Shown here piece by piece: positions 16,497 through 18,786 of a DNA stretch of 22,826 bases. The stretch is from IMG/VR virus record IMGVR_UViG_2724679293_000023; one strand, given 5' to 3'. Position 1 is the stretch's first letter, and each line of letters begins with the position of its first letter. Under the pieces are notes generated by a model that made no database searches, was not told the origin of the DNA, and was given only the letters and a program-made list of their open reading frames with translations. The DNA is from a virus. Lineage: Duplodnaviria > Heunggongvirae > Uroviricota > Caudoviricetes. Position numbers and translations under genes: made by a program.

Positions 16497-18512
16497 ATGA
16501 GCACAAAACCACTCTTCCTGTTACGGAAAGCGAAAAAATCATCCGGTGAACCTGACGTCGTCCTGTGGGCAAGCGACGATTTTGAATCGACCTGTGCCAC
16601 TCTGGACTACCTGCTCGTTAAGTCAGGCAAAAAACTGAGCAGCTATTTTAAACCTGTTGCCACGAATTTTCCTGTCGTTAATGACCTTCCCCCTGAAGGT
16701 GAGATCGATTTTACCTGGAGTGACCGCTATCAACTCAGCAAAGACTCCATGACCTGGGAACTAAAACCGGGAGCAGCGCCAGACGACGTTCACCACCAGG
16801 ATAATGCTCAAGAAACCAAAGAACTGGCGGGAGGCCAGGAAGAAAACGCGCAGGCAGACGCCCACGAGGATTGCCAGGATTGCGAAGTCTCTGTAGCCAC
16901 TTTGCGGTTCACACAGCGTCTTCTGCACATTTTTACGTATGCAGCCGGGGATCGGAAATACCTGCATCATGCCACCCGTGAACAACGCAAACACATTACT
17001 GCTCTTGAGATGGATCAGGAAAACAGCTATGTCCAGAATCTGCTGTTGGCCATACGCAGCATGGCAGAACCGACAACTCTGGATAATGCCGCCCTGCTCC
17101 GCCTGACTGATGCAATTAAGGCAGTGTTCTCTATCACGAAAAAACATCAGCCCTATGAATTTAAGAATTTCATTTCAGCCTGGCTGGATACCGAACACAT
17201 TGATCGCGGTCTTCTGACAAAAGAATGGCGAAAAGGAAATCGTGTTTCACGCATCACGCGCACGGCTTCCGGCGCTAATGCTGGCGGCGGGAACCTCACC
17301 GATCGCGGCGAAGGTTTCGTTCACGATCTGACGTCACTGGCGCGCGACGTAGCCACTGGCGTACTGGCTCGTTCAATGGACGTGGACATTTATAACCTTC
17401 ATCCGGCACACGCTAAACGTGTCGAGGAAATTATCGCTGAAAATAAACCACCCTTTTCTGTTTTCCGCGACAAATTCATCACCATGCCTGGCGGGCTGGA
17501 TTATTCCCGCGCCATCGTGGTTGCGTCCGTAAAAGAAGCACCAATTGGGATCGAGGTTATCCCCGCACACGTCACTGAATATCTGAACAAAGTACTGACT
17601 GAAACTGATCATGCCAACCCTGATCCAGAAATCGTGGATATTGCCTGCGGTCGTTCCTCTGCCCCGATGCCGCAGCGTGTAACAGAAGAAGAAAAACAGG
17701 ATGATGAAGAAAAACTGCAACCATCTTGCGCAATGGCAGATGAACAGGCAACGGCTGAAACAGTGGAACCGGATGCAACTGAACATCATCAGGACACGCA
17801 GCCGCTGGATGCTCAGTCACAGGTAAATTCTGTTGATGCGAAATATCAGAAACTGCGGGCAGAACTCCATGAAGCCCGGAAAAACATTCCGCCCAAAAAT
17901 CCTGTCGATACAGACAAATTACTGGCTGCCTCTCGCGGAGAATTTGTTGAAGGGATTAGCGACCCGAATGATCCGAAATGGGTTAAGGGGATCCAGACCC
18001 GCGACTCTATATACCAGAATCAGCCAGAAACGGAACAGAACGACCAAAATACGCAACAAAACGAGCCAGAAACGAAACAGCCTGAGCCAGTAGTGCAACA
18101 ACAGGAAACGGAGAAAGTTTGCACCGCCTGCGGTCAGTCTGGCGGGGATAACTGCCCTGACTGTGGTGCGGTGATGGGCGACGCAACATATCAGGAAACA
18201 TTCGATGACGAGAATCAGGTTGAAGTTCGGGAAAATGAGCCGGAGAAAATGGAAGGCGCTGAACATCCACACAAGGAGAATGCTGGCAGCGATCCGCATC
18301 GCGATTGCAGTGATGAAACTGGCGAAGCAACAGCTTCATCATTAGAAAAACTCGACTGGAAAAGACAAGTGGTGATTGCGGCGGTTTACGGTTTATGTGC
18401 GAATCCTGCAGGTATAGCCTCAGCGCCATTAATTCCGGGTATTGCAATGATGATCGCAAACAAACTTGAAAATTTTGGGGTAACAGATGATGAGCACATG
18501 CCCGATTTTTGA
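16497..18512 (+). CDS. RecE N-terminal region-like protein (671 aa), apparently lacking the C-terminal exonuclease domain
   Basis: Begins [40 protein letters not shown], which I recall as the N-terminus of Rac RecE (866 aa); acidic, Gln/Glu-rich; 3' end runs 26 nt into gam in another frame and no RecT-like gene follows. Confidence 0.55.
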
Positions 18513-18786
18513 TCGCATTGAAGAGCTGGCATGGTCACGCCACTACCAGAAGATCGTTCGCGAAGAAAAAGAAACGGAACTGGCGGACGACCTGGAAAAA
18601 GGTCTGCCTCAGCACCTGTTTGAATCGCTCTGCATCGACCATTTGCAACGCCACGGTGCCAGCAAACAGGCAATCAGTCGCGCATTTGATGACGATGTTG
18701 AATTTCAGGAACGCATGGCAGAACACATCCGGTACATGGTTGAAACCATTGCTCGTCACCAGGTTGATATTGATTCAGAGGTATAA
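18487..18786 (+). CDS. gam: Gam (RecBCD inhibitor), short GamS-like form
   Basis: 99 aa; ...[45 protein letters not shown]...[25 protein letters not shown] is near-identical to lambda Gam C-terminal region. Confidence 0.85.

Follow-up and report, generated by a model that had tools for sequence, protein, structure and literature searches.

A RecE-family gene with a two-helix domain in place of the nuclease, upstream of gam-bet-exo in a Rac-type prophage

RecE, the exodeoxyribonuclease VIII (ExoVIII) of the Rac prophage, has an N-terminal region of about 600 residues that has for decades been described as 'of unknown function', yet it is this region that gives full-length RecET its proficiency in linear-linear recombination, on which direct cloning rests. 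Here we describe a gene at positions 16497..18512 of IMG/VR record IMGVR_UViG_2724679293_000023, a stretch of 22,826 nucleotides (nt) from a virus of the Caudoviricetes, which as a whole we term the window; coordinates refer to it, and to its plus strand unless stated otherwise. The gene is an intact open reading frame (ORF) with an ATG start and encodes a nuclease-less RecE-family protein of 671 amino acids (aa), in which the RecE N-terminal (RecE-N) region is followed by a conserved C-terminal tail. Genetically, the nuclease domain of RecE substitutes on its own, the N-terminal region being dispensable for recombination, and full-length RecE improves linear-linear recombination (PMC11611040). 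Our literature searches, which were noisy, found no function assigned to the RecE N-terminus. In its account of lambdoid Rec modules, a 2025 survey notes nuclease-less 'RecE-2' proteins and gives their role as not known (PMC12315714); by that description they are comparable to the window protein, both being without a nuclease.

The same architecture (682-690 aa, tail, no nuclease) is found in the proteins labeled 'exodeoxyribonuclease VIII' in the Shigella phages 75/02 Stx and POCJ13, phage PhiR5_2 and the prophage of E. coli O104:H4 2011C-3493 (WP_001271588.1), whose genes likewise lie directly upstream of gam-bet-exo. These Stx/O104-type proteins share about 60% overall identity with the window protein but have a different N-terminal cassette and end in ...ENFGGDKS rather than ...DDEHMPDF; their genes overlap gam by 4 nt rather than 26 nt, and the phage backbone and attachment (att) site (ynfG) also differ from those of the window. 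PHROG 26058 (633 positions; PHROG label 'unknown function') has the same RecE-N core and QGLCANP tail, no nuclease domain and an early-left location. Compared with typical members of that family, the ORF is chimeric, with an N-part like that of E. coli RecE (phrog_607) and a putative zinc ribbon in the place of their 'REIEI...SPDFSDEEIH' middle domain. With such an N-part joined to the family tail, the window copy is a new chimeric member of a known, uncharacterised kind of protein.

A RecE N-terminal region ending in a two-helix domain

In protein alignments the ORF is collinear with K-12 RecE (866 aa) and Rac-SA53 RecE (1048 aa) up to aa ~610-613, where similarity ends and the sequences diverge. 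Consistent with this, residues 1-613 match positions 1-599 of the 877-position NCBIfam ExoVIII equivalog NF007259 (1003.9 bits against a cutoff of 1269), and PHROG matches connect residues 3-666 to phrog_607 and residues 159-654 to phrog_26058. At the level of a single pair, the ORF matches P0016, an E. coli ExoVIII of full length (891 aa), without a difference over aa 1-610, beyond which P0016 goes on into its PDDEXK nuclease domain. What the ORF has in common with RecE/ExoVIII (Rac; K-12 b1350; NF007259; PF06630 + PF12684) is hence the N-terminal ~610 residues, made up of PF06630, a helical core, a zinc-ribbon segment and an acidic linker. The initial annotation had recognized a 671-aa RecE N-terminal-like ORF, and these similarities, far beyond chance, bear it out.

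The N-terminal PF06630 domain (aa 2-182; 16500..17042; Pfam E=2e-67) is a variable cassette, here of the Rac-SA53 type, and blastn against other loci places a mosaic boundary near 17150-17200. The helical core (aa ~130-395; 16884..17681), which is common to all RecE-N family proteins, is delineated by its predicted structure, its substitution pattern and the conserved columns of the family alignment, and bears the motif SGAxxGGGNxTDR. The putative zinc ribbon is recognized by its cysteine positions, CxxC-x7-CxxC (Cys542, 545, 553, 556; 18120..18164), within an acidic disordered region; the segment is conserved in the K-12, SA53 and Stx-type proteins, and its match to Pfam DZR is weak (E=0.04). 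A fast-evolving acidic linker (aa 576-610; 18222..18326) follows and ends in ...DETGE, the point at which the identity to P0016 stops and the domain swap is located. The last part is the tail (aa 611-671; 18327..18512), comprising two helices, the tip ...DDEHMPDF and the stop codon. The protein is thus laid out as a PF06630 N-domain, a helical core, an acidic disordered region with the putative zinc ribbon, an acidic linker and a two-helix QGLCANP domain of ~45 residues.

A structure predicted with AlphaFold2 (AF2) has a confident all-helical core (residues ~130-250 and 270-395, with a predicted local distance difference test score, pLDDT, of 85-96), a beta/alpha N-domain of moderate confidence, long disordered acidic regions (399-438 and 497-614), and two tail helices at 621-635 and 643-659 (pLDDT 70-82).

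No PF12684 nuclease domain was found in the ORF by Pfam, and tblastn across the window detected no RecE nuclease domain, RecT or DnaQ-type domain, in keeping with the earlier observation that exonuclease domain and recT are both absent. Pfam, NCBIfam, PADLOC and PDB-sequence searches with the tail and the whole protein returned only PF06630 and the weak zinc-ribbon matches. Thus, relative to RecE, the ORF is without the PD-(D/E)XK nuclease (K-12 residues ~564/606-866) and without an adjacent recT, and has the QGLCANP two-helix tail instead. With no nuclease domain and with this tail in its place, the ORF protein cannot be a 5'-3' exonuclease.

The tail matches no Pfam family. Its alignment yields the consensus LTYRQQLTIAALQGLCANPA-x5-DDLPxMAxxLA with invariant A, A, G, N and P columns, and the ORF carries the motif QQLxxAAxxGLCANP...(D/E)(L/I)PxMA at its very C-terminus. 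It corresponds to the C-terminus of PHROG 26058, as 18 of 20 tails match positions 579-628 of the 633 in that family. We computed the ratio of nonsynonymous to synonymous substitution rates (dN/dS) for ten intact ORFs of 646-690 aa, drawn from three diverged E. coli/Shigella lineages and four integration sites (yebY, ttcA, ynfG and yfaA-adjacent). It was 0.08-0.15 in the tail with dS >1 (residues 614-662, the gam overlap excluded), 0.09-0.16 in the helical core (residues 226-400) and 0.6-0.9 in the acidic linker (residues 576-613). These values indicate that the tail is under strong purifying selection.

Two alternative explanations of the tail can be weighed against these data. In the first, favored by the PGAP annotation and by the first reading of this locus, the ORF is a decaying remnant: a RecE truncated by Red-cassette insertion or illegitimate joining, with its frame open by chance. 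PGAP indeed labels 16497-18326 a pseudogene ('RecE family exodeoxyribonuclease, incomplete, missing C-terminus'), the swap in this lineage is recent, and a few related copies are disrupted (L089, L094, L098 and L106), as expected for prophage genes. Yet dN/dS in the tail is ~0.1 across lineages whose synonymous sites are saturated, the tail is common to phrog_26058 and to proteins of other genera that are only 25-35% identical, the ORF type is intact in the viable phages 75/02 Stx and PhiR5_2, and the fused partner is a pre-existing domain rather than a random read-through. In view of this conservation, the remnant reading is largely refuted, and we regard it as improbable. The claim that the ORF is a truncated leftover accordingly falls: its last ~50 residues form a conserved domain under purifying selection, present in 20 of 82 long representatives, in PHROG 26058 and in Red-free prophages. 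Moreover, the tail-type family is just the sort of full-length alternative family, with an overlooked C-terminal domain, that the initial annotation had itself named as telling against its view.

In the second explanation, the tail-coding DNA is kept for the translation-initiation or regulatory signals of gam, the peptide being irrelevant. The last 26 nt do overlap gam, a G-rich Shine-Dalgarno-like stretch for gam lies within the tail codons, and the tail and gam's 5' end travel in E. coli as a single 196-bp unit. Nevertheless, in the tail frame it is the amino acids that are conserved, with synonymous change at saturation; the domain is also present at loci that lack a downstream gam, and possibly exists as a standalone small protein as well. 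We consider the gam-signal explanation the most remote of those discussed here. As read from sequence, then, the selection and distribution data contradict both a dead remnant and a mere carrier of gam signals. Instead, the ORF is a complete and selectively maintained gene of the early-left (pL-type) operon, belonging to the RecE family and without a nuclease.

We also considered whether the tail is a transmembrane segment. This was ruled out by its marginal hydropathy (Kyte-Doolittle peak 1.6), its polar conserved positions (Q, Q, N, C) and the charged, soluble-looking possible cyanobacterial homologues; we read the tail as a soluble helical hairpin and not as a membrane anchor. A further candidate, that the tail is frameshifted RecE or lambda sequence, was likewise discarded, given that 18336-18531 resembles neither. 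The single-stranded DNA-binding protein (SSB) has a C-terminal tip, DFDDDIPF, which docks many partners, and the acidic tip of the window type (18483-18509, the last 9 codons), which ends in Phe, is reminiscent of it. The CFSAN029787 type ends in ...SDERLPDF and the Stx/O104 type in ...ENFGGDKS. As the tip overlaps the start codons of gam, selection on it is not separable from selection on gam.

A family with alternative C-termini

A profile-free search of 1.84 billion representative proteins recovered 258 clusters of the family. From the best 150 we took the 82 representatives that reach 450 aa and sorted them by C-terminus: RecE-N is followed by the PDDEXK nuclease in 23, by the tail in 20, by a DnaQ-like 3'-5' exonuclease in 14 and by a fourth type in 6, with the remaining 19 unrecognised. 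The 20 tails are those matched by a tail hidden Markov model (HMM) at the C-termini of their proteins. The two-helix domain thus takes the place of the PD-(D/E)XK exonuclease and ends a whole subfamily of such proteins. In P0107, P0130 and others from E. coli and its relatives, the same RecE-N is fused to the DnaQ-like 3'-5' exonuclease (PF16473) or to the fourth type (...YLxGRLRRL...). From these fusions the linker after ...DETGE looks like a general domain-swap point, and there are strong grounds to regard RecE-N genes as modular, with alternative C-termini after the linker.

Many E. coli carry intact homologues of 657-700 aa. More widely, tail-type proteins of 470-830 aa are found in prophages of Citrobacter, Lelliottia, Buttiauxella and Cedecea and on about 53 IMG/VR contigs. 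These genes are located 0.3-1.1 kb ahead of xis/int, in neighbourhoods devoid of gam, bet, exo and recT. For example, the early-left operon of one such prophage (L034) consists of a repressor gene, two small ORFs, a gene for a 634-aa phrog_26058 protein, a 79-aa ORF, xis and int. At loci of the E. coli type, gam comes next after the tail gene, overlapping it by 4 or 26 nt, and is followed in turn by bet-exo, by an AAA_24 (Sak4-type) gene or by nothing. The Rac-like prophage of E. coli CFSAN029787 (L007 5444-6541) has the RecE-N/tail gene and gam followed by the AAA_24 (Sak4-type) gene, with no bet-exo; tail and gam thus travel together whatever the type of recombinase. A universal linkage of tail and gam was considered and rejected, as it holds in E. 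coli but fails in other genera.

Tail-like proteins of 65-68 aa (MEGHHLDKIGFRQQLIIAAVQGLCANP... and MEGHHLDKIGFRQQLIIAAVQGLCANPTQ...) are encoded on contigs of cyanobacterial metagenome-assembled genomes (L021-L023). With homology extending over ~45 residues, they are plausibly free-standing versions of the tail domain. Apparent 'tail' matches in Oscillospiraceae and Lachnospiraceae (L025-L028) were dismissed as chance, since they come from a multi-pass membrane protein with only a short motif in common.

This distribution bears on the main rival to a role in recombination, namely that the protein is functional but recombination-unrelated. It would then act early and autonomously in host takeover or anti-defence, for instance by binding or inhibiting a host factor, and its adjacency to gam-bet-exo would reflect incidental packing of modules in the distal part of the early-left operon. 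At most loci outside E. coli, the tail protein is the sole large early-left gene product, with no single-strand annealing protein (SSAP), exonuclease or Gam near it; the family pairs with nucleases of opposite polarity or with none; and the N-terminal region of RecE is dispensable for recombination (PMC11611040). On the other hand, in E. coli the gene always lies directly upstream of gam and overlaps it in three diverged lineages, the same N-part is fused to recombination nucleases, and full-length RecE alters the outcome of recombination (PMC11611040), while neither a PADLOC or anti-defence family match nor a fold clue speaks for a recombination-independent function. We judge this rival to be a serious contender, though on balance an unlikely one.

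Joints of the mosaic and the prophage around it

The ORF runs into gam (18487..18786; 99 aa; Pfam PF06064, E=9e-57), with which it shares 26 nt, exactly as the initial annotation had it; PGAP starts gam at 18490, which would reduce the overlap to 23 nt. Then follow bet (18792..19577; 261 aa; Pfam PF03837, RecT family) and exo (19574..20254; 226 aa; Pfam PF09588, YqaJ), in the Red gene order gam-bet-exo. The products are 80.6% (Gam, divergent at its N-terminus), 95.4% (Bet) and 94.7% (Exo) identical to those of lambda, confirming the lambda-like character ascribed to these genes. Comparison with lambda Red as a whole shows the same gene order, 81-95% identity and an early-left operon directed toward xis-int; in lambda, by contrast, gam has another 5' end and is preceded by kil and cIII.

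By blastn, homology to Rac-SA53 extends over 15500-18335 (96%) and resumes over 20276-20711 (97%), so that the DNA of the ORF itself is 96% identical to Rac-SA53 recE up to 18335. Homology to lambda is limited to 18532-20265 (93.4%), beginning at codon ~15 of the short Gam form and ending 11 nt beyond the stop codon of exo. Between them, as delimited by these blastn boundaries, lies a 'third-party' segment of 196 bp (18336..18531), neither Rac nor lambda, which encodes the last ~60 codons of the ORF and the first 15 of gam. Neither at the DNA nor at the protein level does it resemble lambda kil, cIII or gam, or the DNA of the recE nuclease domain. The first reading of the locus had envisaged a joint between a Rac-type and a lambda-type recombination module. 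The mosaic is real, with gam-bet-exo standing in place of the RecE nuclease domain and recT; a direct junction between the two is not present, as mapping against lambda places the beginning of lambda homology only at 18532.

The 196-bp segment occurs in 106 of 5426 complete E. coli genomes (73-100% identity), in the O104:H4 prophage and in 6 phage records, its carriers including 75/02 Stx, POCJ13, PhiR5_2 and phiSTEC1589-Stx1c. Wherever it occurs, the segment supplies the 3' end of a gene that abuts gam and is labeled 'exodeoxyribonuclease VIII' (~650-690 aa). In the lineage of the window, the nuclease domain and recT were in all likelihood exchanged for the tail, gam, bet and exo right after ...DETGE, and very recently, because P0016 still keeps the identical aa 1-610 on a nuclease. 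The left crossover can be placed with good support at or just after the ...DETGE codons (18326/18327), where the PGAP 'pseudogene' ends, and the right crossover, with similar support, just past the exo stop (20266-20275). The exchange probably took place between related Rac and lambdoid prophages via homologous recombination in shared flanks, the highly conserved core and linker on the left and the ralR region on the right. In prophages such as that of NZ_CP054665, the order core-tail-gam-bet-exo-ralR is already present in a Rac background.

The surrounding prophage is a Rac-type mosaic with a Red cassette whose gam 5' end differs from that of lambda, a kind of mosaic that is ordinary for lambdoid prophages. 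Its left flank (15654..16395) carries the early-left genes kilR, ydaE and a racC-like gene at 96% identity to Rac-SA53; its right flank (20276..20711) carries ralR (20287-20481) and a DUF1187 gene at 97% identity, named from the annotation of the matching genome. Together with an immunity/replication region of Rac type, the Rac early-left genes on both flanks (kilR, ydaE, racC, ralR and DUF1187/ydaC; 96-97% DNA identity) identify the prophage as Rac-type, with yebY rather than ttcA as its att site. Two bovine E. coli chromosomes, NZ_CP074756 and NZ_CP074819, match positions 16000-19000 at 100% identity, and the former is annotated with a Rac-like prophage beside yebY. From the matching annotation, the operon order is kilR, ydaE, racC-like gene, ORF, gam, bet, exo, ralR, DUF1187 gene, xis and int. 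The ORF accordingly holds a distal early-left position upstream of xis/int, and follows kilR-ydaE-racC just as Rac RecE does. A scan for promoters and terminators found none above shuffled expectation. The ORF would be co-transcribed with gam, and translational coupling of the two is likely.

Several other features of the prophage are recorded here in their own right. The stretch separating the racC-like gene from the ORF holds a perfect hairpin with an 11-bp stem (ATAGCCTGCGC-CAT-GCGCAGGCTAT) at 16401-16425; it is conserved in both Rac-SA53 and K-12 Rac, and may be an intra-operon terminator or processing site. A low-GC (33-40%) island at ~7500-10500 contains three minus-strand ORFs (9326..10492, 9010..9363 and 8499..9017) for a 388-aa 'ATP-binding protein', a 117-aa DUF4325/STAS-like protein and a 172-aa protein without a family; it has no PADLOC match and may be an uncharacterised moron or a defence candidate. 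The prophage is partly decayed: an IS903B transposase gene (~3191-4159) splits a DUF6645 gene and a DUF1737 pseudogene fragment adjoins it (region ~1384-4396), and a DUF1627 gene at ~11200-11962 is frameshifted. The matching annotation also gives a tRNA-Met gene (4876-4946), a hokD-type toxin gene (7940-8095) and the ralR type I toxin gene (20287-20481).

Possible role and significance

Our overall reading, that the ORF is a complete nuclease-less RecE-family gene produced by a recent swap and encoding a non-catalytic adaptor, is in our estimate reasonably probable, with less confidence attached to the adaptor part. The protein would be non-catalytic and would supply in trans what the RecE N-terminal region provides in cis; its most likely role may be that of an adaptor or scaffold at DNA ends or at replication/recombination intermediates. 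The two-helix tail may then serve in oligomerisation or docking, substituting for covalent attachment to the tetrameric nuclease.

A number of points weigh against this reading. The role as adaptor or in oligomerisation is purely what we infer; the core has no fold relative in PDB or BFVD, and neither tail nor core has a Pfam, PDB or PADLOC match. The AF2 model was built from a shallow family alignment of 20 sequences and has a mean pLDDT of 63.7; a large protein search with that alignment returned mostly near-identical E. coli sequences and did not deepen it. The many tail-type proteins in prophages without a recognisable recombinase argue against an obligatory link to recombination, and the PGAP pseudogene label and the disrupted relatives described above belong on the same side.

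A bolder version, which we put forward only tentatively, is that the RecE-N core plus the QGLCANP tail constitutes an autonomous, widespread early phage protein with the activity of the RecE N-terminus (for example, tethering or bridging of DNA ends or recruitment of a host factor), exercised in trans alongside whichever recombinase is present (Red, Sak4) or without one. In such a case the tail would represent a new, small domain for oligomerisation or docking, maybe free-standing in cyanobacteria. Were this true, a natural nuclease-free RecE-N protein such as this one, added to lambda Red, could confer efficient linear-linear recombination of the kind so far obtained only with full-length RecET.

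In practical terms, genome annotation pipelines give such genes a wrong label, calling them 'exodeoxyribonuclease VIII' or pseudogenes. In lambdoid phage evolution, the linker after ...DETGE emerges as a natural domain-swap point, and the RecE-N region has repeatedly been kept without the nuclease, with a conserved mini-domain as its cap, beside Red or Sak4 recombinases or alone. Nuclease-free RecE-N proteins thereby amount to ready-made separation-of-function alleles for the question of what the N-terminus of RecE does.

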